Made by a program: the position numbers and the translations under genes. A model generated the notes under the pieces. That model had not been told where the DNA came from. It made no database searches and was given only the letters and a program-made list of their open reading frames with translations. A DNA stretch of 64,000 nt from Yuukianura sp. NJ FZ-2021 (taxonomy: Eukaryota): the NCBI GenBank assembly GCA_046563655.1, contig CM102287.1:620001-684000 (forward strand), written 5' to 3'. Shown one piece after another: positions 22,523 to 48,257 of the stretch. Each line of letters begins with the position of its first letter. The stretch's first letter is position 1.

Positions 22523-22729
22523 TTTGGTGACCCTTTGAGCGGAGGTAACAGACAGCCGTAGGAGACTACAGGATCGGATCAAGTTCATCATTCAACTTCT
22601 GTCCTGCCACTTTGTGGGCCCTACCCTGAGCATTCGGGGGTACTTAAGGTAAATACGTTCCGGTTATCTTCTAGAAAGTTACCGTTTACTAATTCAGTAC
22701 TTTCTGCTGAGTTATTTTAAGGTCCAAAG

Positions 22730-25700: not shown

Positions 25701-28046
25701 AAATTTTCGATCCCATTGGATACTTGTGCCCAGTTCTAGTTCTTCCAAAAATGATTCTCCAGGAAACTTGGACATGCAAAGTTGGATGGGACCAGGAGCT
25801 TCCTGAAACGTTCTGCTCAAGATTTATGGCATGGTGGGAAGATCTACGAGCCACGAGAGTGAAATTCCAAGAAATGTGACGGGGGGAATCTCAAACCAGT
25901 CAACTTGGCAACTACACTGTTTCTGCGATGCTTCTAAACTGGCTTTCGCGGCAGTCGTCTTCCTGAGATGTGAAAACGAACGTGAAGTCAGCGTCAATTT
26001 ACTCCAAGCAAGATCCAGGGCTGCACCAATCAAGTCAGTTTCAATTCCTCGCCTCGAACTTATGGCATGTCTCATCGGGGCAAGGCTGACGAAGTCGGTA
26101 GCAACCGCCTTGGATTTGTCTTCAATCAAAACTACGTTCTGGAGCGACTCCTCTACTGCTTTGGCATGGATACAGGGAGACAACAGTTGGGGAACGTTTG
26201 TTGGGAATCGTGTAAGGGACATTCTAAAAATTACCAATTCAGAGGATTGGCGTTTCGTTCCAGGCACCTTAAACCCAGCAGATTTGCCTTCAAGGGGATG
26301 CTCGGCAACCGAACTACAAAAATTCAAATGGTGGGAAGGACCCGAATGGCTAAAAGAGAAGAAGGAGCACTGGCCGAATTCAAGTTTCACTCCAGATCAG
26401 GATTTGGTGAATGTGGAACTCAAAAAGTGCAGTGTCACATCGGCAGTTGCTACAGAAGTTGTCACTCCGTGGTTCCTCAGAAGATTCTCATCACTTAAGA
26501 AAAACATCAACGTCATGGGATTCATCCATCGTTTCATTCAAAATTGTACTAGTCCAAAGGACAGAAGAATCGATGGCCCCTTGACGATTCCAGAAGTGGA
26601 AAAAGCGGAACTCAGAATCGTGAAACTAGTCCAGTCAGAAGCATTTCCGGAGTCAGGAGACATAATTAAAGGAATACACATCATTCGTGATGCTGACGGT
26701 CTCCTCAGACTCAAAACAAGACTTCTGGAGCGTGACGACACAATTGGTTTCCGACTACCACTAATTTTGCCAAATTCTCATTTATTTACTGATCAGCTGA
26801 TTCGAGAAGTTCATTTGGAAAACAGTCACGGAGGAACTCAGTTTCTCATTTCAAGACTCCGTGAGAAATTCTGGATCTTCCAGATGAGACGGGCAGTCAG
26901 CAAGATTGTTTCAAGATGTGTCAAGTGTCGTCGCTTTCAATCAAAACCATACGCCGACACTGGACTACCAACATTGCCTGGAGCACGAGTGAACACTACC
27001 AAAGTGTTTGAAGTGACGGGAGTGGACTTAGCAGGTCCTATGTACCTCAAGGGTGGTGACAAGGTTTGGATCCTACTAGCCACTTGTGCAGTCTACCGTG
27101 CTGTTCATCTGGAGCTACTAACGTCACTCAGCACAGAATGCTTCATCTTGGGCTTCCAGAAATTCATCAACAGAAGAGGACGTGTCAAAACAGTCTACTC
27201 CGACAATGGGACGAACTTCCGTGGAGCAGACAACCTCTTTGCAAAACTCGACTGGGTCCGAATACAAAAAGAATTCGAAGTAAAACGGATCCAGTGGATA
27301 TTCAATCCTCCAGCATCTCCGTGGTGGGGTGGATTTTGGGAGCGGCTGATCCGATCAGTGAAGGATATCCTCAAAAGAATTTTGGGTAAACGAGTACTGA
27401 ATTATGAACAATTGCTAACTTGCTTGTGTGACGCAGAAGCAGTTGTCAATTCTCGTCCCCTAACCTGTATCACTGAGGACTCCGAAGATCTGATCGCCTT
27501 GACACCAGCAATGTTCCTGCAAGAAATCACAGAAGTTCAGTTCCCAGAAGTTGATCAAGTCACACCGAAGGAACCTGAACTACAGAAACAATTCCGTCAT
27601 CTAACCCGTGTTCGTGAGGAGATCAAGTCCAGATTCAGAAAGGAGTACTTGTCTCTTCTGGTTCAACGTGGGAAGGAAAAGAAGATGAGGGAAATCAAGA
27701 TTGGCGACATTGTCATCATCGGGAGTGACGATGTGAGGAGACTCGTGTGGCCATTGGCAAAGGTCATCGAAATCATCCCGGGAAAGGAGGAGTCAAGCGT
27801 GTCGTCAAAGTGAAGACTGCAGTGGGAACCTTACTCCGCTCCATTCAACGTTTATACCCACTGGAAGTGTCACTGGATCTACCGGAAGTAGCTGCGATGC
27901 CACTACAAGAAGCTGCAACTGAAGTCGAAGTGGAACCGCAGAAGAAACTGACGACTGTTGTGGAAGAAGAATCTCCGATCGAAGAGAAGGTCGTCACTAC
28001 TCGTCGTGGTAGAACCATTAGACAACCGCAAAGATACGGCCAGTAA
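22730..28046 (+). pseudogene. gag-pol: BEL/Pao gag-pol polyprotein with two frameshifts (~25850, ~27790)
   Basis: Gag KLPKISIKKLDGDLREWLGFWAQF; three Cys/His knuckles; protease IIDSGSQRSY; RT ADIRKAF/YVDN; RNase H FCDASKLAFAAV; integrase GVDLAGP, SDNGTNF, PWWGGFWERL; C-terminal WPLAKVIE/VKVKT split over ORFs 22730-25879, 25831-27813, 27747-28046. Confidence 0.95.
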
Positions 28047-28162
28047 TTTCTGATTTGAATTTTTGTATAATTTGATTAATTTTCCATTCATTTCATTAAT
28101 TGACTAATTTAGTTTTAACCTTTAATTGTTTCTTTAACTCCCGTCAAAGAAAGGTGGGAAGA

Positions 28163-28504
28163 TGTTAGAAATATGAGACTCTTGTATGGGAGGAGCCTGA
28201 AGGGCTCTAATTTTAAAATAGCATTTTTGTCGGTTAGGTTTCTTTTGTATTTGATTTTTGTTCAGAAATCCTAACCTTTTGTGTGTGTAATGAGTTAAGT
28301 GGATAGGAAGAAGTGGAGCCGTTAGGAGCTAAGTTTTTTGCGCTCTCACTTCATTGGTGTACTTTGATTGATTCGAATAATTAAAATTAATAATCATTTA
28401 CACCTTCCGTCTTCTTTGAGTTCTTTGAGTTCTCAATTAATTGACTAACGGATACTCGGACCGGAGGTCGAGTAGTCCACATTTGAAAGTCAGTACTTTC
28501 AATA
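28163..28504 (+). repeat. 3' LTR of BEL/Pao element (342 bp)
   Basis: Direct repeat of 22178-22522 preceded by PPT. Confidence 0.95.
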
Positions 28505-31500
28505 AGTTGCGTTGAGTTACTTAGCATACCTATTCGTAAGAAGTATTTATAATGTCAAGCAACTAATTAGTCTCATAGGCAAGATAGAGCTACATATTTG
28601 CAAAGCATCCAGTAATGGGGCTCTCGATACTGGTGTTTACATTTAGAGCCCCATAATGTCACTACAGTAAATAGCTATCCCCCCTAAGTTCTCTGATGAA
28701 GGTTTCTCATCTTGGAGCCATAACATTAGATGCTAGGTGGGATTGTGGGTATTGCTATAACTTCAACGTAACCTTTGCATGTATTGTTGGCCATGATTTT
28801 AGTAAAGCATTTATTCCAAAGCAAATTGTGCTGATATTTGCCATCGTTACCAACTGGGAACAAATCCATCAAATATCCATTTGTCATTTTTGAAAAGTGC
28901 CTACTTTTGATATTAAGTTGCGTTGAGTTACTTAGCATACCTATTCGTAAGAAGTATTTATAATGTCAAGCAACTAATTAGTCTCATAGGCAAGATAGAG
29001 CTACATATTTGCAAAGCATCCAGTAATGAGGCTCTCGATACTGGTGTTTACATTTAGAGCCCCATGATTTCACTACAGTAAATAGCTATCCCCCCTAAGT
29101 TCTCTGATGAAGGTTTCTCATCTTGGAGCCATAACATTAGATGCTAGGTGGGGTTGTGGGTATTGCTATAACTTCAATGTAACCTTTGCATGTATTGTTG
29201 GCCATGATTTTAGTAAATCATTTATTCCAAAGCAAATTGTGCTGATATTTGCCATCGTTACCAACTGGGAACAAATCCATCAAATATCCCTTTGTCATTT
29301 TTGAAAACTGCCTACTTTTGATATTAAGTTGCGTTGAGTTACTTAGCATACCTATACGTAAGAAGTATTTATAATGTCAAGCAACTAGTTAGTCTCATAG
29401 GCAAGATAGAGCTACATATTTGCAAAGCATCCAGTAATGGGGCTCTCGATACTGGTGTTTACATTTAGAGCCCCATGGTTTCACTACAGTAAATAGCTAT
29501 CCCCCCTAAGTTATCTGATGAAGGTTTCTCATCTTGGAGCCCTAACATTAGAGGCTTGGCAGGGTTGTGGGTATTGCTATAACTTCAATGTAACCTTTGC
29601 ATGTATTGTTGGCCATGATTTTAGTAAAGCATTTATTCCAAAGCAAATTGTGCTGATATTTGCCATCGTTACCAACTGGGAACAAATCCATCAAATATCC
29701 CTTTGTCATTTTTGAAAACTGCCTACTTTTGATATTAAGTTGCGTTGAGCTACTTAGCATACCTATTTGTAAGAAGTATTTATAATGTCAAGCAACTAGT
29801 TAGTCTCATAGGCAAGATAGAGCTACATATTTGCAAAGCATCCAGTAATGGGGCTCTCGATACTGGTGTTTACATTTAGAGCCCCATGATTTCACTACAG
29901 TAAATAGCTATCCCCCCTAAGTTATCTGATGAAGGTTTCTCATTTTGGAGCCCTAACATTAGAGGCTTGGCAGGGTTGTGGTATTGCAATAACTTCAATG
30001 TAACCTTTGCATGTTTTGTTGGCCATGATTTTAGTAAAGCATTTATTCTAAAGCAAATTGTGCTGATATTTGCCATCGTTACCAACTTGGAACAAATCCA
30101 TCAAATATCCCTTTGTCATTTTTGAAAAGTGCCTACTTTTGATATTAAGTTGCGTTGAGTTACTTAGCATACCTATTCGTAAGAAGTATTTATAATGTCA
30201 AGCAACTAATTATTCTCATAGGCAAGATAGAGCTATATATTTGCAAAGCATCCAGTAATGGGGCTCTCGATACTGGTGTTTACATTTAGAGCCCCATGAT
30301 TTAACTACAGTAAATAGCTATCCCCCCTAAGTTCTCTGATGAAGGTTTCTCATCTTGGAGCCATAACATTAGATGCTAGGTGGGGTTGTGGGTATTGCTA
30401 TAACTTCAATGTAACCTTTGCATGTATTGTTGGCCATGATTTTAGTAAAGCATTTATTCCAAAGCAAATTGTGCTGATATTTGCCATCGTTACCAACTGG
30501 GAACAAATCCATGAAATATCCCTTTGTCATTTTTGAAAACTGCCTACTTTTGATATTAAGTTGCGTTGAGTTACTTAGCATACCTATTTGTAAGAAGTAT
30601 TTATAATGTCAAGCAACTAGTTAGTCTCATAGGCAAGATAGAGCTACATATTTGCAAAGCATCCAGTAATGGGGCTCTCGATACTGGTGTTTACATTTAG
30701 AGCCCCATGATTTCACTACAGTAAATGGCTATCCCCCCTAAGTTATCTGATGAAGGTTTCTCATTTTGGAGCCCTAACATTAGAGGCTTGGCAGGGTTGT
30801 GGGTATTGCTATAACTTCAATGTAACCTTTGCATGTTTTGTTGGCCATGATTTTAGTAAAGCATTTATTCTAAAGCAAATTGTGCTGATATTTGCCATCG
30901 TTACCAACTGGGAACAAATCCATCAAATATCCCTTTGTCATTTTTGAAAAGTGCCTACTTTTGATATTAAGTTGCGTTGAGCTACTTAGCATACCTATTT
31001 GTAAGAAGTATTTATAATGTCAAGCAACTAGTTAGTCTCATAGGCAAGATAGAGCTACATATTTGCAAAGCATCCAGTAATGGGGCTCTCGATACTGGTG
31101 TTTCCATTTAGAGCCCCATGATTTCACTACAGTAAATAGCTATCCCCCTAAGTTATCTGATGAAGGTTTCTCATCTTGGAGCCCTAACATTAGAGGCTTG
31201 GCAGGGTTGTGGGTATTGCTATAACTTCAATGTAACCTTTGCATGTATTGTTGGCCATGATTTTAGTAAAGCATTTATTCTAAAGCAAATTGTGCTGATA
31301 TTTGCCATCGTTACCAACTGGGAACAAATCCATCAAATATCCCTTTGTCATTTTTGAAAAGTGCCTACTTTTGATATTAAGTTGCGTTGAGTTACTTAGC
31401 ATACCTATACGTAAGAAGTATTTATAATGTCAAGCAACTAATTATTCTCATAGGCAAGATAGAGCTACATATTTGCAAAGCATCCAGTAATGGGGCTCTC

Positions 31501-32123
31501 GATACTGGTGTTTCCATTTAGAGCCCCATGATTTCACTACAGTAAATAGCTATCCCCCCTAAGTTATCTGATGAAGGTTTCTCATCTTGGAGCCCTAACA
31601 TTAGAGGCTTGGCAGGGTTGTGGGTATTGCTATAACTTCAATGTAACCTTTGCATGTATTGTTGGCCATGATTTTAGTAAAGCATTTATTCTAAAGCAAA
31701 TTGTGCTGATATTTGCCATCGTTACCAACTGGGAACAAATCCATCAAATATCCCTTTGTCATTTTTGAAAAGTGCCTACTTTTGATATTAAGTTGCGTTG
31801 AGTTACTTAGCATACCTATACGTAAGAAGTATTTATAATGTCAAGCAACTAATTATTCTCATAGGCAAGATAGAGCTACATATTTGCAAAGCATCCAGTA
31901 ATGGGGCTCTCGATACTGGTGTTTACATTTAGAGCCCCATGATTTCACTACAGTAAATAGCTATCCCCCTAAGTTATCTGATGAAGGTTTCTCATCTTGG
32001 AGCCCTAACATTAGAGGCTTGGCAGGGTTGTGGGTGTTGCTATAACTTCAATGTAACCTTTGCATGTATTGTTGGCCATGATTTTAGTAAAGCATTTATT
32101 CCAAAGCAAATTGTGCTGATATT
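28505..32123. repeat. Satellite array block 2 (~9 monomers, more diverged)
   Basis: Same 410/411-bp monomer resumes in register after the TSD. Confidence 0.99.
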
Positions 32124-32488
32124 TGAAGCGGAGAGGGACTGACGAAGGACGGATTCGGAACTCCGGGGAAAACCGAGTAGCTAGGAATAGGTAGAGTAGG
32201 AGGACTATGTTCTCGAGATAGGATACAGAAATATTCTTTTTCACATTTTTCTGTAACGAGAGTCTCTTCCCAACCTTCAACAAGTGAACACCTAATTAAA
32301 AGTCTATTCCATTAGTTCACTGTTGTTGTCACGACCAGTTCATTTCTCAGTTGATGTTGGCTCAATAGGAGAACCTAGCATTGTTGACCTCAGGTCAAAT
32401 CTTCTCTCCAGGAAGATTCGACCTGAACTGCAGATTTCCCTGTAGAGGAAATCACAGTTACGGTCTCAGGGACTGCGGGGTTGTTGCA
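32124..32488 (+). repeat. 5' LTR of Gypsy element A
   Basis: TGAAGCGGAG...GTTGTTGCA; direct repeat of 41001-41365. Confidence 0.97.
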
Positions 32489-33350
32489 GTGGCGACCGAA
32501 GGGATCATTCCAGTGATGTCATGTTGTCAACTGAAATGAAAGGTCAAGAGGTCAAGTGAGACTTTCCGGTAGAGAAAGGCTCAATTGAAGACAATTGAAG
32601 AAGGAGACGAGATAAATTGATGAGAATTTCCCTGTAGAGGAAATTCTGACCTACCAGCTGATTGATTTTCCTGCAGAGAAAAGCAATCCAGCATTGGAAT
32701 AAATCGAAAACCTGCCTGTATTTTCCAGTAGAGAAAAGACGGGTCAGGTCAAAGGTCAAATAAAGGCACGGGTGCTGCCAAAAATTTTCCGAAAATCGTT
32801 TTCACGCACGGGTGCTGCCCGATTTTTTCAAAAATTCAAACACTTTGAAATTTTTCTGAAGAGAAAAGTTCAAAGGTCGAAGACACCAAACCTACGGACA
32901 GAGAGCAATTCGTCGCTCATTTTGAAAAATCCTGAAGAGATTTTTCGAAAAACTGAACCGATTTTCCGGTAGAGAAAATCGTTCACTGTCCAATTGATGC
33001 CAAATTAAGAGGAGGAAGAGATTCGCTTAACAACCCTGACATAAATAAAGGCACGGGTGCTGCCAAAAAATTCCTAAAAATCAGACATTACGCACGGGTG
33101 CTGCCCAAAATTTTTCAAAAAGTTGAAATCACGCACGGGTGCTGCCCGATTTTCCAAAAATTACCAAATACTTTGATTTCCCTGAAGAGGAAATCGAAAA
33201 CACAAGGAGAGGAACAAGTTGTAACTTGGAGTTGAAGCTCCTGAAGAGAGCATCGACACCAAGACCATCTCAAAACCACTTAAAACAAACAGAATCCTAA
33301 AAATCGCCTCAGTTAACTGGTTTAATTGAAATTGCTGTAGAGAATTTCGT
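32433..33350 (+). promoter_or_regulatory. Array of stem-loops with conserved 7-nt loop C[T/A/G]G[T/A/C]AGA in LTR U5/5' leader
   Basis: Loops at 32440, 32567, 32632, 32671, 32726, 32856, 32932, 32967, 33182, 33241, ~33336, each flanked by different but self-complementary arms. Confidence 0.8.
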
Positions 33351-33366
33351 TTTCCAGCATTAACTA

Positions 33367-35010
33367 ATGAGCAGAAGGGAAGTGAGAGATTTAGAACAAA
33401 ACTTTCGTGCATTCCTACGTGGATTCAACATGGACAGACAAAACATAAATCCAATTCCTGAAGAACCAATTGATGTTGATGATCTTGAAGGTGACATGCA
33501 TATTCAGAATCCAGTAGATGATGATGATGATTATTCAAATGGAGGTTCAGATGCAAGTTCCGTTATTCAACGAACTGTACCAAACCAAGTCCCTATCGTC
33601 TCATCTGCTGCTCCAACAATCACAACTCAAGCTTCAACAGCAACATCAGGCATGCGTACTACGGGTTCTGGTCCATCCAGTTCACGTACTGTACCGAGTG
33701 GAGCAGATTATGTTCGCATTCCACAATCAAGTCAAATTAATGAACAAAATATTGCGAAATGGATCAATGAGGGATTAGCTGCTATGGTTTCAGAAATTGT
33801 GAATCCTATACATACGGCTCTAACACGATTGGATAGACGCATGCACAGAATGGAGAATGACAATGCAAATCCTACTGGCAGCCAATTCTACCAACCACAA
33901 TTTAACCAGAGACAGCAAATTAATCAACCTCAACAAGATTTCCTAAATGCTCTGCAAGGAATTCGCCTGACAACAGTCAGTTCTGCAATTCCAATTCCCA
34001 AGTTCAATCATAAGAAAACAACAGCTTCAGACTTCTTGAAGGATGTTGAACGATATTACAGAGCTCAACAGTACAATGAAAGTGACTACTTGTATTTGGT
34101 CAAAAACATTTTGCCAAATGACGCAAAGGAATGGTGGGACCATGTACGTCACAGAATCGATGACTGGGATGAATTCAAACAAGAATTTATGGAGAAATAC
34201 GACGGAGCTACTAACATCATGGAACGAATGAGGCTTTTGCAAACAAGACTTCAGCGTGTCCATGAGCCAACAGAGTCTTTCATTTTCGAAATGATGAAGA
34301 TGTCAAAGGTCGTTTATCCAAATGAACCTACAGAAATGGCTGTTGAAAGAACAAGAAATGCCCTATTTCCACAGTTGCGACTGGGTTTAGGAGCTCAAGA
34401 AATTAAAACACCGGAGGCTCTAGTCAAAGCTTGTCACGTGGTTCACCGTAGCCTGGAAGCTAACGCCAGAATATACAGAGAGAAATTACGCCTACCGCCG
34501 TTGAGTAAACACGAACTTGAAGAATCTAAGAAAAATCAAGGCCCCAAACAAAAATCTGAAGAAAAGTCAACTGAAAAAACGGAAGCTGAGTCGTATCGCG
34601 GTTCAACTTTCTTTCGTGGACAAAGGGGATTCAATCAAAGATACAATTCAAATTCTAGACGTCCCTTTCGCGGCGGAAGAGGAAATTTCCCTGGAAGAGG
34701 AAATTTCACTTATCGCGGTGGAAGATGGAACGGAAATCCAAGAGATGACAAACAAAATGACAAACCTCAAGAAACAAAGCCAAGTCAAAATCCATCTGAC
34801 AAGAACAAACTGGCTAACGTTCAATGCATGAAATGTAAAGGCTTTGGCCATCTTACAAAAATGCGTCCAAACAAAACCGGATTGGCACTTCCCGCTCATG
34901 ATGAGGAATGGGAAACGGAGTATGAAGAGGAATACTACCAAGAAGAGCAAATGGATGACGAAAGTACCAATCAAAATCCAGATTTAAACTCCAAAGGGAG
35001 ACACCAATAA
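33367..35010 (+). CDS. gag: Gag of element A (547 aa)
   Basis: Capsid-like AKEWWDHV...WDEFKQEFMEKY; RGG-rich NC region; degenerate knuckle CMKCKGFGHLTKMR. Confidence 0.9.
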   Translation: MSRREVRDLEQNFRAFLRGFNMDRQNINPIPEEPIDVDDLEGDMHIQNPVDDDDDYSNGGSDASSVIQRTVPNQVPIVSSAAPTITTQASTATSGMRTTGSGPSSSRTVPSGADYVRIPQSSQINEQNIAKWINEGLAAMVSEIVNPIHTALTRLDRRMHRMENDNANPTGSQFYQPQFNQRQQINQPQQDFLNALQGIRLTTVSSAIPIPKFNHKKTTASDFLKDVERYYRAQQYNESDYLYLVKNILPNDAKEWWDHVRHRIDDWDEFKQEFMEKYDGATNIMERMRLLQTRLQRVHEPTESFIFEMMKMSKVVYPNEPTEMAVERTRNALFPQLRLGLGAQEIKTPEALVKACHVVHRSLEANARIYREKLRLPPLSKHELEESKKNQGPKQKSEEKSTEKTEAESYRGSTFFRGQRGFNQRYNSNSRRPFRGGRGNFPGRGNFTYRGGRWNGNPRDDKQNDKPQETKPSQNPSDKNKLANVQCMKCKGFGHLTKMRPNKTGLALPAHDEEWETEYEEEYYQEEQMDDESTNQNPDLNSKGRHQ

Positions 35011-35032
35011 ACACCTCGATGTGTGTTCTCCC
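34983..35032 (+). promoter_or_regulatory. -1 ribosomal frameshift signal of element A
   Basis: Slippery T TTA AAC in gag frame, then stem GGGAGACAC...GTGTTCTCCC; the -1 frame is open into pol. Confidence 0.8.
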
Positions 35033-38000
35033 AATTCTCAACCGAATATCCAGAGGTGTACCTACAATTCAAGCTACTTCAAATCAATTCAAATTTTCGG
35101 CACTCTTGGACTCAGGATCTAAGTTTTGCATTATGACAGAACAATTGGCAAAAGACACCAAATCAAAAATTTCAAAATCAGAAACTTCTGTACTTCGCGG
35201 ATTGGCGGGGAAAGTACAAACAATTGGCAAAGTCAAACTTCAATTCAAAATTGGAAATCGATTAATCAATTGGCAATTTCAAGTAGTGGAGAAGCTTCCA
35301 GTCTCTTGCATTCTTGGAGCTGACTTCATTCAGAAAAACAAAATTCTGTTTGACTTAGACGAATCAAAATTTTGGTTCAAGGAGGAGCCACACCAAACAT
35401 TTTTCATCAGAGGATTTCATGACAAGAAACCCAAGCTTAGGCTATCAGTCACATCTTCCGCTTTCGAATTTTCCAGTAGAGAAAAGTCGATTGACGATCG
35501 TGTGAAAGAGATCCTAGACAAATTCCCAAATGTTGCAAGAAAGGATGGAAAATTTGGACGAACGGATGTCACATACCATGTCATTGACACTGAAGGTCCA
35601 CCAGTCAAACAACGTCCATACAAAACTTCACCAATGATGAGAGAAATTATCAAACAAAATGTCGAAATTCTAGAAAAAAATGGAATGATCAGACCATCCA
35701 GATCACCGTATGCATCACCAGTCGTTTTAGATCAAAAGAAAAATGGCCAGTGGAGGCTCTGCATTGACTACAAACGTCTCAATAAACAAACAAAAGACAA
35801 TGCTGGACCGATGCATAACGCTCACACAATTTTAAGACAAATTCCAGCAGGTTACTGGTATTCAGTCATTGATCTTCAGGCTGGATATTGGCAAATCATG
35901 CTGTCAGAAGAAAGTATTGAAAAATCCGCTTTCATTACAGAAGATGGACATTGGGATCTACTCGTTATGGGTTTCGGATTGAAAAATGCTCCAAAAACAT
36001 TTGCAGCATTGATGAACATTGTCCTTAAAGACGCAATTGGTAAATACGTTCATGTATTTATTGATGACACCATCATTTTCTCCAAAGATTTGGAAACTCA
36101 TCTCAAGCATATTGAAATGGTCATGGAGAAACTCAATACCGCAAATCTAACAATCAACTTGGAAAAATCAATTTTTGCCAAGCGGAGAGTTCCATTTCTT
36201 GGACATACAATTGGAGAAGACGGATTGAAAAAGAATTTAGACAAAATGGAAGCTATTACAGACTATCCAAAACCTCAATGTGTCAAGGACGTACAGCGAT
36301 TTCATGGCATGTGTCAATGGTATTCTACATTCATTGAACACTTTGCGCAGAAAGCTGAACCCTTATACAAGCTTCTACGAAAAGGAACAAAATGGAATTG
36401 GGGTGAAGATCAAGAAAGATCGTTCCAGACTCTCAAAAAAGACATTTGCAATGAAGTAATACTCAAAGAAGTCGACTATTCCAAACCAATTATCCTCAAA
36501 TGTGACGCATCCGATATTGGCTTGGGCGCAGCGCTGGTCCAAGTTATAGATGAAAAGGAACGGCCAATACTTTTCATCTCCAAAATTCTGAAGAAAACAG
36601 AACGGAGTGCACACATTTATGAGAAGGAAGTTTATGCAATCGTCTGGGCGTTAAAAACTCTCAAACACTATCTGCAAGGTTACAGTTTCAAAATCTACAC
36701 AGACAGCAGAGCAGTCAACTACATCAAAGGACTTAAAGACTCAAAACCAAAGTTCATGAGATGGGCTCAAGAAATTGATCGCTGGAATGCGACAATTGAA
36801 TTAAGAAAAGGCAAAGAGAATGTCGAGGCAGATGCTCTCTCACGGGCGCCAGTTGACAGTCACAATACAGAAGACATGGATGATCCTGAAGAGATCATCT
36901 ATACTCCTGTATGTTTCTGTTATGATACGCCGACATGGAGCCAAATCAAAAAAGAACAAGAAAAGGACATTGAAATTTCACGTCTCAAGAAATTGCTTTG
37001 TTATGACCCTTCAAATTCCAAGTGCGCACACTTCGTAGTTGAAGATGGAATAGTGAAGCGTCTAGTCGAGATTCCGCTCAAGAGAATCAACAAGTACTCT
37101 CTCGCAGATACTTCCGAGGTTCACTCATTAGTAGCTGAAACTCAAATTCAAAAAATGGAAATTCCGGGTTTCCAAAAATGTACATCCTGTGCCGAGGAAC
37201 AACTTCCAGTTCAGTCAGTAGGGATCGTTCCAGACTCAAATCAAACCAAAATGTCAAAACAGAAGTTAGTTTGGCAAAAAATCAAGATTCCAGTTATTCC
37301 AAAGTCACTCCAAAATGAAATTCTCAAGATATTTCATGATGCACCAGAGTCAGGTCATCCAGGAGTCAGGAAGACAAAGGAAAAAATCAAAGATAGATGT
37401 TTCTGGAATGGAATGAATAAGGACATTGCCGACTACGTCAAGTCGTGCAAAATCTGTCAAACGACAAAGCCAGACAATACCTTACCATCCGGGTTGCTTC
37501 AATCAAAAGATTACGCTACATCAGTTTTTTCTACACTACACATCGATTTTCTAGGCCCTATGGTGCCTAGTTCAAGAAGAAACAAGTTCATTTTGGTCGT
37601 AATCGATGAATTATCCAAGTGGGTGGAGCTATTTCCCATGACATCAGACACATCAGCAAAAGTTGCAGAAGTTTTAGAAGATTCAATATTTTGTCGTTTC
37701 GGAGTTGCCAAAGTTATCCTTTCTGACAATGCGAGTCAGTTCAAATCCAAAATAATCAAGAAATTGTGCAAACAATGGAGAATCCAACATCGTTTCATTA
37801 GCCCATACCATCCACAGCCAAATCAAGCAGAAAGAGTTAACAGAAATCTAAAGGCAATGATACAAGCATACGTCGAAAATAACCACAGAACTTGGGATGT
37901 TCATCTTCAAAAATTCGCATTTGCACTGAGAACATCAATAAACGAATCGACAAAAGTCACACCAGCTCTTTTGAACTTAGGCAGAAATTTGCCACTTCCG

Positions 38001-38552
38001 TTTGACAGAAATTTGGAAGCCGAAGGAAATACCAATTTTGACGAAGAAAGAGAGAAATTGACAGATTTACCCGAGAAACTACAAGAAATAATCAAATGGG
38101 TACGAGAGAACATGGAGGAGGCACATGAGAAAAATAAGAAAAATTACGACATTTCTCATCGAGAAGTTACGTACGACATTGGTGATTTAGTCTTGGTCAG
38201 AAATCACCCAATTTCCAAGAAGGACGATGCGGTTATGCAAAAACTTTCAAAACGTTGGCTTGGCCCATTCAAAATTACATCAAAAACCGCAGACGCAAGC
38301 TACGAGTTAGCAAATCCTGTCACAAACAAGAAATTCGGAAAACGTCACGTTTCGGAGCTAAAACCATTTTTTGTGCGAGAAGAAACTGCGTCAGAAAACA
38401 AGCCCAGTCACCTTCCGAAGACTAAAACAATTACCAGGAAGTTAGGCCAGAAGAAACCAACTACTGACATTCCGACAAGTCCAGCAGTTACCAGAAAATT
38501 ACGCGAAAGAAAACAAGTAAATTATAGGTCAATGGCAGGCCTACGTCAATAG
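34983..38552 (+). CDS. pol: Pol of element A (protease, RT, RNase H, integrase), expressed via -1 frameshift
   Basis: LLDSGS; WRLCIDYKRLN, DLQAGYWQI, FIDD; CDASDIGLGA; H...GH...CKIC; IDFLGP, SDNASQF, AERVNR; GPF. Confidence 0.96.
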   Translation, partial: FKLQRETPINTSMCVLPILNRISRGVPTIQATSNQFKFSALLDSGSKFCIMTEQLAKDTKSKISKSETSVLRGLAGKVQTIGKVKLQFKIGNRLINWQFQVVEKLPVSCILGADFIQKNKILFDLDESKFWFKEEPHQTFFIRGFHDKKPKLRLSVTSSAFEFSSREKSIDDRVKEILDKFPNVARKDGKFGRTDVTYHVIDTEGPPVKQRPYKTSPMMREIIKQNVEILEKNGMIRPSRSPYASPVVLDQKKNGQWRLCIDYKRLNKQTKDNAGPMHNAHTILRQIPAGYWYSVIDLQAGYWQIMLSEESIEKSAFITEDGHWDLLVMGFGLKNAPKTFAALMNIVLKDAIGKYVHVFIDDTIIFSKDLETHLKHIEMVMEKLNTANLTINLEKSIFAKRRVPFLGHTIGEDGLKKNLDKMEAITDYPKPQCVKDVQRFHGMCQWYSTFIEHFAQKAEPLYKLLRKGTKWNWGEDQERSFQTLKKDICNEVILKEVDYSKPIILKCDASDIGLGAALVQVIDEKERPILFISKILKKTERSAHIYEKEVYAIVWALKTLKHYLQGYSFKIYTDSRAVNYIKGLKDSKPKFMRWAQEIDRWNATIELRKGKENVEADALSRAPVDSHNTEDMDDPEEIIYTPVCFCYDTPTWSQIKKEQEKDIEISRLKKLLCYDPSNSKCAHFVVEDGIVKRLVEIPLKRINKYSLADTSEVHSLVAETQIQKMEIPGFQKCTSCAEEQLPVQSVGIVPDSNQTKMSKQKLVWQKIKIPVIPKSLQNEILKIFHDAPESGHPGVRKTKEKIKDRCFWNGMNKDIADYVKSCKICQTTKPDNTLPSGLLQSKDYATSVFSTLHIDFLGPMVPSSRRNKFILVVIDELSKWVELFPMTSDTSAKVAEVLEDSIFCRFGVAKVILSDNASQFKSKIIKKLCKQWRIQHRFISPYHPQPNQAERVNRNLKAMIQAYVENNHRTWDVHLQKFAFALRTSINESTKVTPALLNLGRNLPLPFDRNLEAEGNTNFDEEREKLTDLPEKLQEIIKWVRENMEEAHEKNKKNYDISHREVTYDIGDLVLVRNHPISKKDDAVMQKLSKRWLGPFKITSKTADASYELANPVTNKKFGKRHVSELKPFFVREETASENKPSHLPKTKTITRKLGQKKPTTDIPTSPAVTRKLRERKQVNYRSMAGLRQ

Positions 38553-38859
38553 TTAAGTCAAAATAATAATTAATAATTAGTTAAGAAATTATTCAAAGTA
38601 TTACAATATAAATCGTAATATTAATAGATTTATAATTTTCCTTTATTATTTCATAATTCATTCATATTTATTCATAATCGTACTGAAATAGTATAATTCC
38701 AGTATTTAGTTGTTAGATTTAATGTTAAGTAAAGTAAAATCGCACGTTGACGTTAAGCAGTTTCCGCTAAATCAGAGCTTTAGGCATATCCTCACCCACG
38801 AGCGCCACTCTCTCACATGCTTTCTAGATCCAGCACAGCACAGTCGAGAGATATACTCT

Positions 38860-38991
38860 AATTTCCCTGTAGAGGAAATTGGAATTCAAAAACTGAAAAT
38901 CTCCTGTAGAGAGAATTTCGGATTCAAAAAACGTTCAACTGATTTTCCAGAAGAGAAAATCGGTGTTGACTTCTCTGTAGAAGAAGTCGAC
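38860..38991 (+). promoter_or_regulatory. Four CNGNAGA-loop hairpins immediately upstream of ORF3 ATG
   Basis: AATTTCC-CTGTAGA-GGAAATT; AATCTC-CTGTAGA-GAGAATT; GATTTTC-CAGAAGA-GAAAATC; GACTTCT-CTGTAGA-AGAAGTC. Confidence 0.8.
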
Positions 38992-38992
38992 A

Positions 38993-41071
38993 ATGTCTGA
39001 CAAACGTTGTTCCGACGTTGAACCGAAGAAGAAATCGTTTCACGACAAGTTACTGGATGGATTCAAGGTTTCTGGACGAGTGGACGTATTACCACAACAC
39101 GACAAAAGATATCCTGATCTTGTTGCTGAAAGACGGGAAAGAAACAATTGGCCTGTGTTTCCCATTCGTAATCATCCAAAGTTCGGACTCGCGACGATGT
39201 GGAAACCGTCTGAATTCTATCGCAAAAGTTCATCGTTTCCTGTGACGAAACGGGAAAAAGTTCCCCTGACATTCGTGGATTCGGCTCTGAAATTTGAAGA
39301 AATGAAACGTGTGCTACAAGGAGAAACTGAAATTGGGGTTGACATTGAGAATTCGCTAATTCCGGACTACATTTCGAGATATACATGCCTGTTGCAATTT
39401 TCAACATTCAAAGAAGATTTCGTGGTTTGTCCGTTCCTACTTCATGCAAAAATCAAAGAATTGGAATCAATTTTTCTCAATCCGGATATCATCAAAATCA
39501 TCTTCTCTGCTCAAAACGATCTGTTAGCATTGGCACTGGATTTCCAACTCTTTGCTGTAGCGGTAATCGACCCACAAATCATTCATCGTGAATTCATTGG
39601 TGAGAACTTGTCACTGGAAAAATTTGTTCAACTTTACATGGATAAATCTACTCAAATTGACAAATCGGCTCAATGCTGTGATTGGAGAGTACGACCATTG
39701 AAGTCCGACATGTTGAACTACGCTAAAGACGACACTCATCTGTTGATTAGAGCATGGACTACAATGAAAACACAACTGGGATTGTTTAAAGAAGAAAACA
39801 AAAAGAAATTACAGAAGTCTATCGAAATCTGCAACCGAATGGTAACGAAGATTCCAAAATTACCAGTTTATCCATCGGCCGAAGAATTATCTTACAAGTT
39901 GCGAGTTCCAGTCAGTCAAAGCAGTTTGTTTGATGACTTGTACAAATGGAGACAAGAATTGGCCAAAAGGAAGAATGTGGAACCGAAATTTATCATGTCA
40001 GATACAACTTTACTTGAATTGGCAAACAACTGCCCCATTCGTACCACAAGATCGCACAATCAAGCAGGAATTCAAGATTTTCTGCGTAAAAATTCAATGG
40101 CATGGGAACGAGCTGACGATCTGGTGAAAATCACTAGAAAGTATGACAAGTACAACTACGATGTACTTAAACAAAAAGTCAACTACTTCTTTGGCTCACA
40201 GAAGAATTCCAATGCAAGTAACAAGAAAGATGACATGCAGTCTAAATTAGTAACAACGTCTACTAGAAGTAACAAAACTACTGAAATTGTTGAGAGACCA
40301 ATGGAAGTGACCACTACTCGAAACATCGCTGCTAAAGAAGACGACAATAGGTCAAAGCTATTGCCGACTTCTGCTAAAAGTGTCAACAACACTCAAATTA
40401 CTGACAAACCAACGGAAGTGAAAAGCAGTCGAAACGTCACTTTAATTCAAACCAAACCGGCACAACAAGACGTAATAACCGACATCCAACCAACGTTTAC
40501 TGTACAGCTTCCATCATTGACAGAATATCTGCAGATTCATGCTGACGAGGATATGGAAGATATAACTGACGAGTTGCAGATCAGCATCCAACAAAACGAG
40601 AGACAAGTGGTGACAGTTCCTGCATCAATTCAAAAGCCAAGTTACAAAGATTCACTTGTTTGTTATCTTTGTTTCTCAAACGGGCACAACAGACACGACT
40701 GTCCTCAAGTCAACAAAGAACCGGACGCAAGGAATACTCTGGATAGAAAACAAAACCGGAAACTCTATTTTGAACAACGTCCAGAAAAGAGAAATCATTT
40801 GACTCATAAAATGAATGTCAAAAGAAGGGAGAAACTTAAGAAGAAACGTCAATCTGGAAATTCTGCATGCTGTTTTCGGAACTCCGGACGTGTCGAGTGG
40901 AAACGAGGCGACAAGAAGACGAAGATTGTATCCGCTGGTCGAGGTCGGAGGACCGTGCATGAGGGTCGCGCTGATGGAGGCGCATTTCCCGGGCGCAATA
41001 TGAAGCGGAGAGGGACTGACGAAGGACGGATTCGGAACTCCGGGGAAAACCGAGTAGGTAGGAATAGGTAG
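38993..41071 (+). CDS. ORF3: Rrp6/EXOSC10 (RNase D family)-like DEDDy 3'-5' exonuclease + HRDC + CCHC knuckle (692 aa)
   Basis: ExoI IGVDIE, TCLLQFSTFKEDFVV, ExoII SAQNDL, DWRVRPL, ExoIII YAKDDTHLL; HRDC-like LFDDLYKWRQELAKRKNVEPKFIMSDTTLLELA; CYLCFSNGHNRHDC; ORF ends inside 3' LTR. Confidence 0.92.
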   Translation: MSDKRCSDVEPKKKSFHDKLLDGFKVSGRVDVLPQHDKRYPDLVAERRERNNWPVFPIRNHPKFGLATMWKPSEFYRKSSSFPVTKREKVPLTFVDSALKFEEMKRVLQGETEIGVDIENSLIPDYISRYTCLLQFSTFKEDFVVCPFLLHAKIKELESIFLNPDIIKIIFSAQNDLLALALDFQLFAVAVIDPQIIHREFIGENLSLEKFVQLYMDKSTQIDKSAQCCDWRVRPLKSDMLNYAKDDTHLLIRAWTTMKTQLGLFKEENKKKLQKSIEICNRMVTKIPKLPVYPSAEELSYKLRVPVSQSSLFDDLYKWRQELAKRKNVEPKFIMSDTTLLELANNCPIRTTRSHNQAGIQDFLRKNSMAWERADDLVKITRKYDKYNYDVLKQKVNYFFGSQKNSNASNKKDDMQSKLVTTSTRSNKTTEIVERPMEVTTTRNIAAKEDDNRSKLLPTSAKSVNNTQITDKPTEVKSSRNVTLIQTKPAQQDVITDIQPTFTVQLPSLTEYLQIHADEDMEDITDELQISIQQNERQVVTVPASIQKPSYKDSLVCYLCFSNGHNRHDCPQVNKEPDARNTLDRKQNRKLYFEQRPEKRNHLTHKMNVKRREKLKKKRQSGNSACCFRNSGRVEWKRGDKKTKIVSAGRGRRTVHEGRADGGAFPGRNMKRRGTDEGRIRNSGENRVGRNR

Positions 41072-41365
41072 AGTAGGAGGACTATGTTCTCGAGATAGGA
41101 TACAGAAATATTCTTTTTCACATTTTTCTGTAACGAGAGTCTCTTCCCAACCTTCAACAAGTGAACACCTAATTAAAAGTCTATTCCATTAGTTCACTGT
41201 TGTTGTCACGACCAGTTCATTTCTCAGTTGATGTTGGCTCAATAGGAGAACCTAGCATTGTTGACCTCAGGTCAAATCTTCTCTCCAGGAAGATTCGACC
41301 TGAACTGCAGATTTCCCTGTAGAGGAAATCACAGTTACGGTCTCAGGGACTGCGGGGTTGTTGCA
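41001..41365 (+). repeat. 3' LTR of Gypsy element A
   Basis: Direct repeat of 32124-32488. Confidence 0.97.
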
Positions 41366-42420
41366 TATTTGCCATCGTTACCAACTGGGAACAAATCCAT
41401 CAAATATCCCTTTGTCATTTTTGAAAACTGCCTACTTTTGATATTAAGTTGCGTTGAGTTACTTAGCATACCTATTTGTAAGAAGTATTTATAATGTCAA
41501 GCAACTAGTTAGTCTCATAGGCAAGATAGAGCTACATATTTGCAAAGCATCCAGTAATGGGGCTCTCGATACTGGTGTTTACATTTAGAGCCCCATGATT
41601 TCACTACAGTAAATGGCTATCCCCCCTAAGTTATCTGATGAAGGTTTCTCATTTTGGAGCCCTAACATTAGAGGCTTGGCAGGGTTGTGGGTATTGCTAT
41701 AACTTCAATGTAACCTTTGCATGTTTTGTTGGCCATGATTTTAGTAAAGCATTTATTCTAAAGCAAATTGTGCTGATATTTGCCATCGTTACCAACTGGG
41801 AACAAATCCATCAAATATCCCTTTGTCATTTTTGAAAAGTGCCTACTTTTGATATTAAGTTGCGTTGAGCTACTTAGCATACCTATTTGTAAGAAGTATT
41901 TATAATGTCAAGCAACTAGTTAGTCTCATAGGCAAGATAGAGCTACATATTTGCAAAGCATCCAGTAATGGGGCTCTCGATACTGGTGTTTCCATTTAGA
42001 GCCCCATGATTTCACTACAGTAAATAGCTATCCCCCCTAAGTTATCTGATGAAGGTTTCTCATCTTGGAGCCCTAACATTAGAGGCTTGGCAGGGTTGTG
42101 GGTGTTGCTATAACTTCAATGTAACCTTTGCATGTATTGTTGGCCATGATTTTAGTAAAGCATTTATTCCAAAGCAAATTGTGCTGATATTTGCCATCGT
42201 TACCAACTGGGAACAAATCCATCAAATATCCCTTTGTCATTTTTGAAAACTGCCTACTTTTGATATTAAGTTGCGTTGAGTTACTTAGCATACCTATTTG
42301 TAAGAAGTATTTATAATGTCAAGCAACTAATTAGTCTCATAGGCAAGATAGAGCTACATATTTGCAAAGCATCCAGTAATGGGGCTCTCGATACTGGTGT
42401 TTACATTTAGAGCCCCATGA
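41366..42420. repeat. Satellite array block 3 (~2.6 monomers)
   Basis: Monomer resumes in register after TSD; ends abruptly at AGCCCCATGA. Confidence 0.99.
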
Positions 42421-42803
42421 TGAGGCAGACGGAACGTCTCTACTTGACCTCTGACCTAACTGACTCCTATGCTGCCCTTACTCCAACAAATGAAAAATGA
42501 GATGGAAGGCGAAGATCGGTCAGAGAGCTCTGTCTTGGTTGAGGTCTTTATTCATACTAGCCCTGTCTATATACAAGTTTTCCCTATCTCTCATCATTTT
42601 GAATTGTGTTCCCGCCGGGGTCTCACCTTACCCGGTTGCACACTACGGGCTCTAAAAAGAACCTCCGGGAAGGGGGGGGGGGTGATCTGCCAGTGACGAG
42701 GGGGTCCTCGGGCGACGTGTCCAGGCGGCAATTCCAAGTCCAGATGAAATCCAATGTACAGGTCTGGTTGTGATCATGATGAGGGATTGTAATGATGAAG
42801 TGT

Positions 42804-48158: not shown

Positions 48159-48257
48159 GTGGGTTTAAACAAATGTAATATTAATAATAACCTTATGATT
48201 CACTAATGTTTGAAATATATGTTAATTAATAAATATTTCAAAATTTTATTGAAGACA

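Follow-up and report, generated by a model that had tools for sequence, protein, structure and literature searches.

The region between the primer-binding site and gag is the classical place for retroviral packaging signals, which are normally kept out of subgenomic mRNAs. The leaders of Ty3/gypsy elements are also known to carry arrays of DNA sites, as in Drosophila gypsy, where an array of Su(Hw) sites in the 5′ UTR forms an insulator, given in the cited text as a 340-bp stretch of that UTR (PMC3383448). Among viral RNAs, the apical part of domain V of the poliovirus IRES is described as a mimic of an anticodon stem-loop that binds glycyl-tRNA synthetase (PMC3384309). Here, we compare with these systems a hairpin array in element A, a full-length Ty3/gypsy LTR retrotransposon located in a 64,000-nucleotide stretch of DNA that was analysed as a whole (the window).

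Element A, a gypsy-type retrotransposon, is young and intact. It interrupts a 411-bp satellite, with a 4-bp target duplication (TATT) on each flank, and its LTRs are spaced 8877 nt apart and are 99% identical (Table 1). A tRNA gene search of the window found none. The leader is about 880 nt long; one 14-mer is present in it five times (0.01 expected), together with closely spaced AGGTCA pairs, and both resemble DNA sites. The pol frame is −1 relative to gag, with a slippery heptamer, T TTA AAC, at 34983–34989, and the zinc-knuckle-like motif of Gag lacks the fourth Cys. ORF3, an unusual gene whose 3′ end extends 71 nt inside the 3′ LTR, encodes an exonuclease that, judged by its sequence, looks like an Rrp6/RNase D-type enzyme. 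A second exonuclease ORF, on the other strand (44870–43767), is 28% identical to ORF3 and is preceded by a short-period repeat array of different sequence, in which no excess folding (z −0.09) and stems of only 4 bp were observed.

Table 1. Features of element A and its hairpins, in window coordinates.
Feature	Position	Strand	Description
Element A	32124–41365	+	Full-length Ty3/gypsy LTR retrotransposon; LTR pair, ORFs, Pfam domains, flanks
5′ LTR	32124–32488	+	TG...CA, 365 nt
Primer-binding-site-like sequence	32490–32506	+	Begins TGG, one base past 5′ LTR; read from sequence
gag	33367–35010	+	547 aa; ORF and Pfam: Arc/retrotransposon-Gag capsid domain, Arg-Gly-rich tail, one zinc-knuckle-like motif
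pol	35019–38552	+	Protease, RT, RNase H, integrase; ORF and Pfam domains
ORF3	38993–41071	+	692 aa; DNA_pol_A_exo1 3′-5′ exonuclease, HRDC, CCHC zinc knuckle
3′ LTR	41001–41365	+	
Inverted LTR member	32393–32423	−	12-bp stem, minus-strand loop CTGGAGA; copy at 41270–41300
Hairpin 1, LTR	32433–32453	+	7 bp, loop CTGTAGA; copy at 41310–41330
Hairpin 2, leader	32557–32583	+	5 bp + A·G + 4 bp, loop CGGTAGA
Hairpin 3, leader	32623–32647	+	9 bp, loop CTGTAGA
Hairpin 4, leader	32660–32688	+	5 bp + A·G + 5 bp, loop CTGCAGA
Hairpin 5, leader	32714–32744	+	5 bp + A·G + 6 bp, loop CAGTAGA
Hairpin 6, leader	32844–32874	+	5 bp + A·G + 6 bp, loop CTGAAGA; paralogue of hairpin 9
Hairpin 7, leader	32920–32950	+	12 bp, loop CTGAAGA; 5′ arm A-rich, unrelated
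Hairpin 8, leader	32959–32981	+	8 bp, loop CGGTAGA
Hairpin 9, leader	33172–33198	+	10 bp, loop CTGAAGA; top covariance-model score, 41 bits
Hairpin 10, leader	33231–33257	+	4 bp + A·A + 5 bp, loop CTGAAGA, inner stem GC-rich
Hairpin 11, leader	33327–33349	+	Closing G·G then 7 bp, loop CTGTAGA; 3′ end 17 nt short of gag ATG
Gag variant, Arg-Gly-rich part of Gag	34682–34707	+	9 bp, 8-nt loop CTGGAAGA
Hairpin 12, pol protease-RT linker	35464–35490	+	5 bp + A·G + 4 bp, loop CAGTAGA
Hairpin 13, pol RNase H-integrase linker	36876–36902	+	10 bp, loop CTGAAGA
Hairpin 14, pol-ORF3 spacer	38857–38883	+	10 bp, loop CTGTAGA
Hairpin 15, pol-ORF3 spacer	38893–38921	+	4 bp + A·A + 6 bp, loop CTGTAGA
Hairpin 16, pol-ORF3 spacer	38938–38964	+	10 bp, loop CAGAAGA
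Hairpin 17, pol-ORF3 spacer	38964–38992	+	11 bp, loop CTGTAGA; −13.6 kcal/mol, z −4.02

A preliminary description of this DNA had reported at least 16 hairpins with a CNGNAGA loop. All of these were found where it placed them, and the + strand of element A proved to carry 17 different hairpins with the heptaloop C-N-G-N-A-G-A. The element has about 19 in all when a gag variant with an 8-nt loop and an inverted LTR member are included. A perfect-stem scan (loop CNGNAGA, stem of at least 4 bp, G·U allowed) scored 17–18 hairpins on this strand including the second LTR copy, with 16 distinct perfect-stem sites; the 17th distinct hairpin is the imperfect hairpin 11, the weakest member (31.8 bits, −4.3 kcal/mol, z −1.46). 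One heptaloop hairpin is located in the LTR, about ten in the leader (hairpins 2–11, one imperfect), two in pol and four in the pol-ORF3 spacer; with the inverted member and the gag variant, the counts are 12 in the LTR/leader, four in the spacer and three in variable linkers of gag/pol. The array occupies both the leader and the spacer, upstream of gag and of ORF3 as had been described, and about 16 of its 17 heptaloop members precede one or the other of these start codons. The four hairpins said to stand right before ORF3 are hairpins 14–17, and the final paired base of the last one (38992) directly abuts the ATG, which starts at 38993. Neither the scan nor the covariance model found a heptaloop hairpin within the ORF3 reading frame or in the upstream portion of the LTR.

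The less regular members were also recovered. The gag variant, previously placed at about 34691, scored 24.5 bits in the covariance model (E 0.0025; folding z −1.65) and is the least certain member because it is built from a direct repeat of a self-complementary word. The LTR hairpin reported in reverse orientation scored 27.8 bits on the minus strand (E 3.4e-4) and folds at −15.4 kcal/mol there versus −13.1 on the plus strand; binding of + strand RNA leaves this copy unexplained. In pol, the single hairpin noted earlier is present as hairpin 12, in a linker that is hypervariable, with indels, among 13 relatives, but a second one, hairpin 13, had been overlooked. Hairpin 13 codes for MDDPEEIIY, a peptide that partly forces the palindrome, and a relative with Glu-Asp-Pro-Glu-Glu-Ile-Phe has a weaker hairpin at the matching site.

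The array was confirmed to be real and far beyond chance. In 1000 dinucleotide shuffles of element A, the mean number of hairpins was 0.175 and the maximum 3, compared with the 17–18 scored, and 10 stems of at least 7 bp were observed versus a shuffle mean of 0.01; the evidence throughout comes from paralogous hairpins of one element copy, and their kinship inflates the shuffle statistics. When 196 hairpins with 7-nt loops (stem of at least 5 bp, both strands) were ranked by loop pattern, CNGNAGA on the + strand came first with 15, and the best unrelated pattern had 3. Outside element A, none of the 35 CNGNAGA occurrences on the + strand of the window had a stem, and on the minus strand 2 of 32 did, with stems of 4 bp and 5 bp, the longer containing four G·U pairs; neither the scan nor the covariance model found such a hairpin in the remaining 54.7 kb. 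None of the 18 stemless CNGNAGA copies in coding sequence has gained arms.

The 17-hairpin alignment showed that the stems are held paired by compensatory change, with a wobble signature of + strand RNA. Of 170 stem cells, 91.8% are paired, versus 63.4 ± 2.4% in column shuffles and 35–58% in slid controls, and 48 are doubly changed (15.1 ± 2.9 expected; matched by 0 of 500 shuffles). Co-variation was observed in 9 of 10 stem positions, and positions 5–10, which lie outside the selection rule, pair in 12–17 of the 17 rows. Hairpins 6 and 9 sit in two mutually duplicate leader segments, and their arm differences are compensated. The 25 non-Watson-Crick cells include 11 G·U and no A·C, pointing to + strand RNA, and the heptaloop has the same orientation in all 17 + strand hairpins. 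The earlier wording, “freely co-varying”, is overstated: complementarity is kept and G·U pairs are present, but most arms follow a strong consensus, GAUUUYC/GRAAAUC, and an A located six bases 5′ of the loop (−6) is fixed, together with five loop positions, in 17/17; the closing pair is C-G in 14. When the whole leader is folded (z −5.18), or the 151 nt that precede ORF3 (z −3.38; none of 200 shuffles did as well), the hairpins are retained in both the minimum-energy and the centroid structure, although folding energy does not discriminate between strands (z −5.18 versus −4.58). These data support a strand-specific, multi-copy, structured motif that behaves as + strand RNA.

The distribution of the motif was narrow. 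No such hairpins were found in the two other LTR elements of the window or in 77 metagenomic relatives, and Rfam gave no match to the motif. Just one relative, L002, has a leader that could be read; it is distant, with 44% pol identity, and shares the gag-pol-exonuclease layout. L002 does not carry the motif, so long-term conservation gains no support, and the 136-nt spacer before its exonuclease ORF has no array.

The explanation that we favor, tentatively and as somewhat short of probable, is that the hairpins are cis-acting + strand stem-loops forming a multivalent array for one RNA-binding protein, probably Gag or ORF3, that couples RNA capture to translational control. It is also possible, though unlikely, that the protein they attract to the two 5′ untranslated regions is a host RNA-binding factor instead, acting in translation, nuclear export, stability or germline localisation. 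The placement of nearly all hairpins upstream of two start codons is the pattern of a 5′-UTR function common to two messages, and, as packaging signals are usually absent from subgenomic mRNAs, the pre-ORF3 hairpins fit such a shared role (translation, export, stability) at least equally well. However, a generally useful factor would be expected to be more widely exploited, and the absence of the motif from the two window elements and exonuclease-bearing L002 agrees more with a ligand particular to the element than with a conserved host factor. In one version, the hairpins mimic tRNA anticodon arms: the loop is of anticodon-loop size upon an inner 5-bp stem, loop position 2 is U in 12/17, positions 6 and 7 are G and A, and five hairpins have a purine-purine A·G mismatch as the sixth pair, at the place equivalent to the 26·44 mismatch that tRNAs carry. 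Five of the 17 loops are CUGAAGA, letter-identical to the yeast tRNA-Phe anticodon loop as printed in the cited text (PMC3923128), and the mimicry described for poliovirus IRES domain V gives a viral precedent (PMC3384309). On the other side, five loops have a base other than U at position 2, the pair that closes the loop is C-G, most stems extend well beyond 5 bp, and the primer-binding site has, by eye, no obvious match to Phe, Tyr or Cys tRNA; with just five fixed loop letters, partial resemblance to other loops is cheap.

It appears improbable that the hairpins give the ORF3 exonuclease places to dock or stop, serving particle loading, RNA/cDNA end processing or translational feedback on ORF3. 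ORF3 does join an Rrp6/RNase D-type 3′-5′ exonuclease to HRDC and a CCHC knuckle, four hairpins reach its start codon, the second exonuclease ORF likewise has a repeat array ahead, and the inverted LTR copy would show its loop on minus-strand strong-stop DNA, at a single-stranded 3′ end. Yet L002 has an exonuclease ORF and no array, the array before the second ORF is of different sequence and shows no excess folding, and most hairpins (12) lie in the LTR/leader, distant from ORF3. The earlier suggestion of self-protection from the element's own exonuclease is disfavoured, since about 16 of the 17 hairpins belong to the 5′ LTR/leader or to sequence ahead of ORF3, and no hairpin but that of the LTR is able to recur at the 3′ end, so that a 3′-5′ enzyme would meet the hairpins last.

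We consider it quite doubtful that the hairpins are functionless mutational by-products, arising from reverse transcriptase snap-back or template switching at a hot spot or from the spread of a palindromic module. Snap-back copying upstream of a fixed core yields perfect inverted repeats that “co-vary” without selection, segmental duplication within the leader clearly spread some hairpins, and hairpin 13 is partly explained by its peptide (Asp-Asp-Pro-Glu-Glu-Ile-Ile). Unselected decay, however, should yield A·C as often as G·U, and copying accounts neither for the unchanging A at −6 nor for a closing pair that is nearly always C-G; the compensated changes in duplicated units, the armless coding copies of the loop and the lack of such hairpins in the rest of the window also stand against it. 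Another idea is that the repeats act at the DNA level, the leader holding either sites bound by proteins or cruciform-prone palindromes. It has the precedent of site arrays in Ty3/gypsy leaders such as the gypsy insulator, as the cited text gives it (PMC3383448), and the company of the exact leader repeats (14-mer, AGGTCA pairs), but is very improbable, given that a dimeric DNA-binding protein requires conserved half-sites whereas the arms vary with complementarity alone kept, that an asymmetry of 11 G·T to 0 A·C is meaningless in duplex DNA, that an asymmetric loop has a single orientation, and that some copies lie within coding sequence and some end on a start codon.

We return to the multivalent RNA-protein array as the preferred explanation. 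Every hairpin would offer the heptaloop on a C-G closing pair with the invariant A six bases 5′, and a single RNA-binding protein, specific for both sequence and shape, would recognise the array. That ligand is most likely element-encoded, with Gag (Arg-Gly-rich tail and knuckle) and ORF3 (HRDC and CCHC knuckle) as candidates because both carry nucleic-acid-binding modules. The leader contains only 5 ATGs, versus 13.0 ± 2.7 in shuffles (0.1% of shuffles as low), which fits scanning ribosomes that a bound protein could block; ATG depletion in the pol-ORF3 spacer was not significant (2 versus 4.3, p 0.12). The 12 LTR/leader members lie where retroviral packaging signals are classically found. 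Binding along the leader would mark full-length RNA for capture into particles, and the bound protein would hinder ribosomes that scan the leader, so moving the RNA out of translation and into packaging, while the four hairpins abutting the ORF3 start codon may place ORF3 synthesis under the same control.

The preliminary description of this DNA had reported at least 16 hairpins with a conserved loop in Element A, a full-length LTR retrotransposon. Using a rule that required a CNGNAGA loop and a flanking stem of at least 4 contiguous pairs, we found 17 matches on the plus strand of the window, every one of them inside Element A, and the same scan of the plus strand of the remaining 54.7 kb returned none. 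Since 1000 dinucleotide shuffles of Element A gave a mean of 0.175 hairpins and a maximum of 3, the reported family is real; stems of at least 7 bp numbered 10, compared with 0.01 in such shuffles. As a control for the post-hoc choice of motif, we sorted by loop pattern all hairpins on either strand that had a seven-base loop and a stem of 5 bp or more (196 in total). Plus-strand CNGNAGA ranked first with 15 hairpins, and the best unrelated pattern had 3. The motif itself occurs 36 times on the plus strand of Element A, 18 times in a hairpin and 18 times stemless in coding sequence. A covariance model built from 17 different hairpins, with which the whole window was searched with filters off, recovered all 17 as well as the copy in the second LTR. 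The two irregular types described earlier were detected too, namely the inverted hairpin, present in both LTRs (27.8 bits, E = 3.4e-4), and a variant in gag with an 8-nt loop (34682-34707; 24.5 bits, E = 0.0025), and outside Element A no score in the window was better than E = 1. The single pol hairpin listed earlier was found again, together with a second one, at 36876-36902, that the list had missed.

The 31-nt windows of the 17 hairpins could be aligned without gaps. Five loop positions never vary (C1, G3, A5, G6 and A7). At position 2, 12 hairpins have T, 3 have A and 2 have G; at position 4 the counts are T 10, A 6, C 1 and G 0. The closing pair is C-G in 14 of the 17, and position -6, six bases 5' of the loop, is always A, with U as its partner in 12 hairpins and G in 5. 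The commonest arm is GAUUUYC/GRAAAUC, and six hairpins have quite different inner stems. The stems had been called freely co-varying; changes on both sides were indeed observed at 9 of 10 stem positions, but the consensus arm and the invariant A at -6 indicate that this freedom is restricted. When a fixed 10-pair structure was scored over the 17 rows (170 cells), whose selection had depended on the formation of the inner pairs, 91.8% of the cells were paired; column shuffles reached 63.4 ± 2.4%, and displacement of the partner by 1-3 columns gave 35-58%. Pairs 5-10, which lie outside the selection rule, were still paired in 12-17 of the 17 rows. Doubly changed cells numbered 48, compared with 15.1 ± 2.9 in column shuffles, and 0 of 500 shuffles attained the observed pairing values, in a test inflated by kinship, as the rows are paralogues from one copy of one element. 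Two leader hairpins (6 and 9) end clearly duplicate segments, and the differences between their arms are compensated. Individual hairpins folded at -4.3 to -13.6 kcal/mol (z = -1.5 to -4.0), and they were kept when the whole leader was folded (z = -5.18, 20 shuffles) and likewise in the 151-nt stretch that precedes ORF3 (z = -3.38, a stability that 0 of 200 shuffles equalled).

Element A is a Ty3/gypsy (Metaviridae) element, in which LTRs, a target duplication and the pol order protease-RT-RNase H-integrase are all present. Its LTRs (365 nt each, TG...CA, 99% identical) are spaced 8877 nt apart, TATT is duplicated on both flanks, and the insertion target was a 411-bp satellite. Most units of this satellite are 96-100% identical, and it occupies much of the window (1-22000, 28423-32123 and 41366-42566); a Bel/Pao-type element (~22178-28416) with identical 254-nt terminal repeats is likewise inserted in it. 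Elsewhere in the window, an ORF encoding an inhibitor-of-apoptosis (BIR) domain (51027-51971) stands amid degenerate retroelement fragments, including an integrase piece (48219-49175). The reading frames of Element A are listed in the table. The heptamer T TTA AAC (34983-34989), of canonical -1 type, lies in the gag frame, 19 nt 5' of its stop codon, and no stop interrupts the pol frame there, so that Gag-Pol is probably made by -1 frameshifting. The sole zinc-knuckle-like motif of Gag (~34827-34868) reads Cys-X2-Cys-X4-His, with no fourth Cys at the usual spacing, and the CCHC knuckle of ORF3 is complete. Close pairs of AGGTCA were observed in the LTR and leader (32385-32397, 32541-32554 and 32746-32758, as well as 41262-41274), one everted with a 1-nt gap and two direct, an arrangement that we take to resemble that of nuclear-receptor half-sites; AGGTCA is somewhat over-represented in the whole window (54 vs. 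31.9 ± 5.3).

Reading frames of Element A (window coordinates, plus strand)
Feature	Coordinates	Content
gag	33367-35010	capsid domain, Arc/retrotransposon-Gag type
pol	35019-38552	protease, RT, RNase H, integrase; -1 frame behind the T TTA AAC heptamer
ORF3	38993-41071	DNA_pol_A_exo1 3'-5' exonuclease, HRDC domain, CCHC knuckle

The hairpins were said to sit ahead of both gag and ORF3, and this was confirmed. Eleven of them (32557-33349) lie in the 878-nt leader between a primer-binding-site-like sequence (32490) and the gag ATG (33367), which is the position typical of retroviral packaging signals, and four fill the last 136 nt before ORF3, where the final stem ends at the base preceding the ATG. 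The LTR members, one on the plus strand and one inverted, are located 35-95 nt before the LTR end, and neither the scan nor the covariance model placed a family member within the reading frame of ORF3 or further upstream in the LTR. The coding copies occupy permissive sites: one lies in the Arg-Gly-rich tail of Gag, one in the linker between protease and RT, which is hypervariable, and one in an acidic linker between RNase H and integrase. The last of these copies (36876-36902) is partly forced by the encoded peptide, Asp codons being the reverse complements of Ile codons, and a weaker version occurs at the same site in a 39%-identical relative; we include it in the family with reservations. 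An upstream ORF of 92 codons (38722-39000) spans all four spacer hairpins and stops 5 nt past the ORF3 ATG, in another frame. A TTTCTAG that may be a splice acceptor has its last base at 38828, 29 nt upstream of the first spacer hairpin (hairpin 14). The leader also contains five copies (0.01 expected) of an exact 14-mer, GCACGGGTGCTGCC (32766-33146), within 41-nt repeats; the rest of the window has none. Its stems do not reach the length of a convincing hairpin, and it could be a second cis element, acting as DNA or RNA. ATG is depleted in the leader (5 vs. 13.0 ± 2.7; 0.1% of 2000 shuffles as low), and the upstream ORFs there are only 3-12 codons long, suggesting that ribosomes scan the leader of Element A. 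No significant ATG depletion was observed in the pol-ORF3 spacer.

The nearest pol relatives were 42-55% identical, the best named match being a springtail protein (48% over half of the query). In 77 metagenomic loci with pol relatives (391 kb) there was no hairpin cluster and no covariance-model match at E up to 1, and the 21 isolated regular-expression matches on both strands, at most 2 per locus, were near chance. A de novo search for over-represented loops found the family only in Element A (12 members), with at most 4 among the loci listed. The sole locus of the 77 with a gag-pol-exonuclease layout (L002; 44% pol identity, ~880 nt before gag and a 136-nt spacer) contained no CNGNAGA hairpins in its sequence, nor did the other two LTR elements of the window (Bel/Pao-type, ~22.2-28.4 kb; gypsy-type, ~54.6-61.1 kb). 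This absence suggests that the motif is specific to the lineage of Element A. A pol profile retrieved 57 viral contigs of ~7-9 kb, 22-29% identical; exact scans for the core pattern gave 73 matches in viral contigs and at least 120 in bacterial genome contigs, all single per locus and thus attributable to chance. A scan of the window and of 33 loci revealed no tRNA genes, and an Rfam search (cmscan) of 32100-41400 on both strands at E up to 1 gave no match on the hairpins. Its sole row was Hammerhead_1 (type I) within ORF3 (40560-40625; 21.4 bits, below the gathering score of 34; E = 0.23), probably a chance match. In the literature we found no paper describing a hairpin with a CNGNAGA, CUGUAGA or CUGAAGA loop, nor an arrayed conserved-loop hairpin in the leader of an LTR retrotransposon.

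Relatives of the ORF3 protein were cellular and Rrp6/EXOSC10-like (27-32% identity). A second Rrp6/RNase D-type exonuclease ORF, 28% identical to ORF3, lies on the minus strand at 44870-42804; an in-frame stop divides it into 367 + 320 codons, and no adjacent pol or LTR was detectable. Its ATG is closely preceded (45235-44935) by a tandem array whose 6-7 units measure 37-43 nt. Every unit contains two inverted repeats of 4 bp, and in one of the two, GTCC/GGAC and GTCT/AGAC alternate. As independent support for the hairpin family this array was judged too weak, with 4-bp stems and no better folding than shuffles (z = -0.09).

Five fixed loop bases and a fixed stem base within otherwise exchangeable stems appear to be the signature of a protein-binding site, and the ~19 copies may form a multivalent array of such candidate sites. 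We favour a reader encoded by the element itself, Gag or ORF3, because the motif is element-specific, both proteins carry nucleic-acid-binding parts, and the main cluster lies at the position of a retroviral packaging signal. As this protein accumulates, it would occupy the scanned leader and turn gag-pol translation off, and the copies abutting the ORF3 ATG would impose the same shut-off on ORF3. A serious rival to the element-encoded reader is a host factor recruited to both 5' untranslated regions. The idea that the hairpins protect the element from its own 3'-5' exonuclease, put forward in the preliminary description, fits poorly with their 5' placement.

Folding energy did not separate the strands (leader, z = -5.18; minus strand, z = -4.58). 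The loop has the same orientation in 17 of 17 plus-strand hairpins, the stems contain 11 G·U and 0 A·C pairs, for which unselected decay of palindromes should give equal numbers, and the arms differ in sequence yet remain complementary, a change of which a DNA half-site reader would be intolerant. Taken together, these observations point to hairpins that act on the plus strand, as single-stranded RNA, and they make it unlikely that the hairpins are DNA-level sites. A pure mutational by-product is also unlikely, since its decay should have yielded A·C like G·U. The inverted LTR copy departs from this pattern. Read on the minus strand, it fits the family well, with a G·U pair as its sole imperfection and a folding energy of -15.4 compared with -13.1 kcal/mol on the plus strand, and it would be exposed in an antisense transcript or in minus-strand strong-stop DNA. 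A kissing loop between the plus-strand form of this hairpin and the heptaloops was rejected, as a perfect match needs G at loop position 4 (0 of 17), and so was a splice acceptor (pyrimidine arm plus NAG), as several arms are purine-rich.

The nucleocapsid portion of Gag presumably reads retroviral psi stem-loops, and murine leukaemia virus has conserved GACG-loop hairpins. Like the array in Element A, psi consists of several stem-loops with conserved loops and co-varying stems, located between the primer-binding site and gag of the genomic RNA. Unlike psi, Element A repeats one module ~19 times with a near-fixed 7-nt loop, for which binding and packaging are predictions, and places copies, one of them inverted, also directly before an accessory ORF and in coding linkers. 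Four copies just before ORF3 would be unusual for a packaging signal if ORF3 has its own message. In MMTV, RNA encapsidation by Gag requires a purine-rich loop and the primer-binding site (PMC8096270), and in HBV, stem-loops with unrelated stems offer an RGAG loop motif to the capsid protein (PMC8677749). As in HBV, many stem-loops of Element A share one short purine-rich motif, the last three loop bases and the closing G reading AGAG; in HBV, however, all RGAG bases are inside the loop, and the sites are few, degenerate and genome-wide, whereas the consensus of Element A is tight and clustered in two untranslated regions. By analogy, psi stem-loops and the multi-site packaging signals of HBV seem to be the nearest conceptual relatives of the array.

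Other known systems were also compared. The Smaug/Vts1 element, a CNGGN0-3 loop on a non-specific stem, often occurs several times per mRNA and is read by a SAM-domain protein that represses translation (PMC4053848). The loop of Element A likewise opens with C-N-G and is present in multiple copies, but a Smaug recognition element was rejected, as loop position 4 is never G (0 of 17 on the plus strand); only the minus-strand LTR copy (CTGGAGA) fits CNGG. The stems vary with compensation, yet they keep a strong consensus and the invariant A at -6. The gypsy 5'-UTR insulator, an array of Su(Hw) sites (PMC3383448), is also a dense array of one short motif in a Ty3/gypsy leader, but it works in duplex DNA and has no hairpin covariation. 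The Juno and Vesta LTR retrotransposons of bdelloid rotifers combine gag-pol with an RNase D-like DEDDy 3'-5' exonuclease as ORF3, and the available text on them does not mention a hairpin, stem-loop or leader (PMC5408684). The likeness of Element A to them rests on this shared gag-pol-exonuclease order.

The hairpins were further compared with tRNA anticodon arms, whose loop consensus is 7 nt with pyrimidine-32, U33, purine-37 and A38; CUGUAGA and CUGCAGA are presumably the Tyr and Cys anticodon loops of animals. A 7-nt loop on an inner 5-bp stem is common to both, and CUGAAGA is identical to the anticodon loop of yeast tRNA-Phe (PMC3923128). An anticodon-arm mimic bound by a tRNA synthetase has been described in a stem-loop of the poliovirus IRES (PMC3384309). 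When the 17 loops were set against the tRNA consensus, C1, G6 and A7 were present in all and U2 in 12; the sixth pair is A·G in 5 of 17, resembling the 26·44 purine mismatch, and A-U in 12 of 17, where the helix continues. Several features depart from tRNA: in five loops another base replaces the U of position 2, which tRNAs conserve most strongly, C-G closes the loop, and most stems extend past 5 bp. It seems improbable that the hairpins copy G34-N35-A36 anticodon arms (CUGAAGA, CUGUAGA and CUGCAGA for Phe, Tyr and Cys) and so recruit a tRNA-handling protein, for which ORF3 would be the best candidate because RNase D-family enzymes process tRNA ends. If such mimicry were true, the ORF3 exonuclease would gain a defined RNA address, and the four copies guarding its start codon would be explained.

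To our knowledge, the RNA signals that act in cis in Ty3/gypsy elements have been poorly defined. Some LTR retrotransposons have captured an exonuclease ORF3, whose function has been discussed without a mechanism (PMC5408684). Element A is an unusually tractable case: within its 21-nt module, five loop bases and one stem A never change, and the ~19 stems that occur naturally can serve as a set of compensatory mutants. Should Gag or ORF3 prove to bind this module, protein and hairpin would make up a simple and repeatable tag-and-reader system for RNA, derived from an animal-type retroelement, and would permit a direct test of how such elements choose between translation and packaging.
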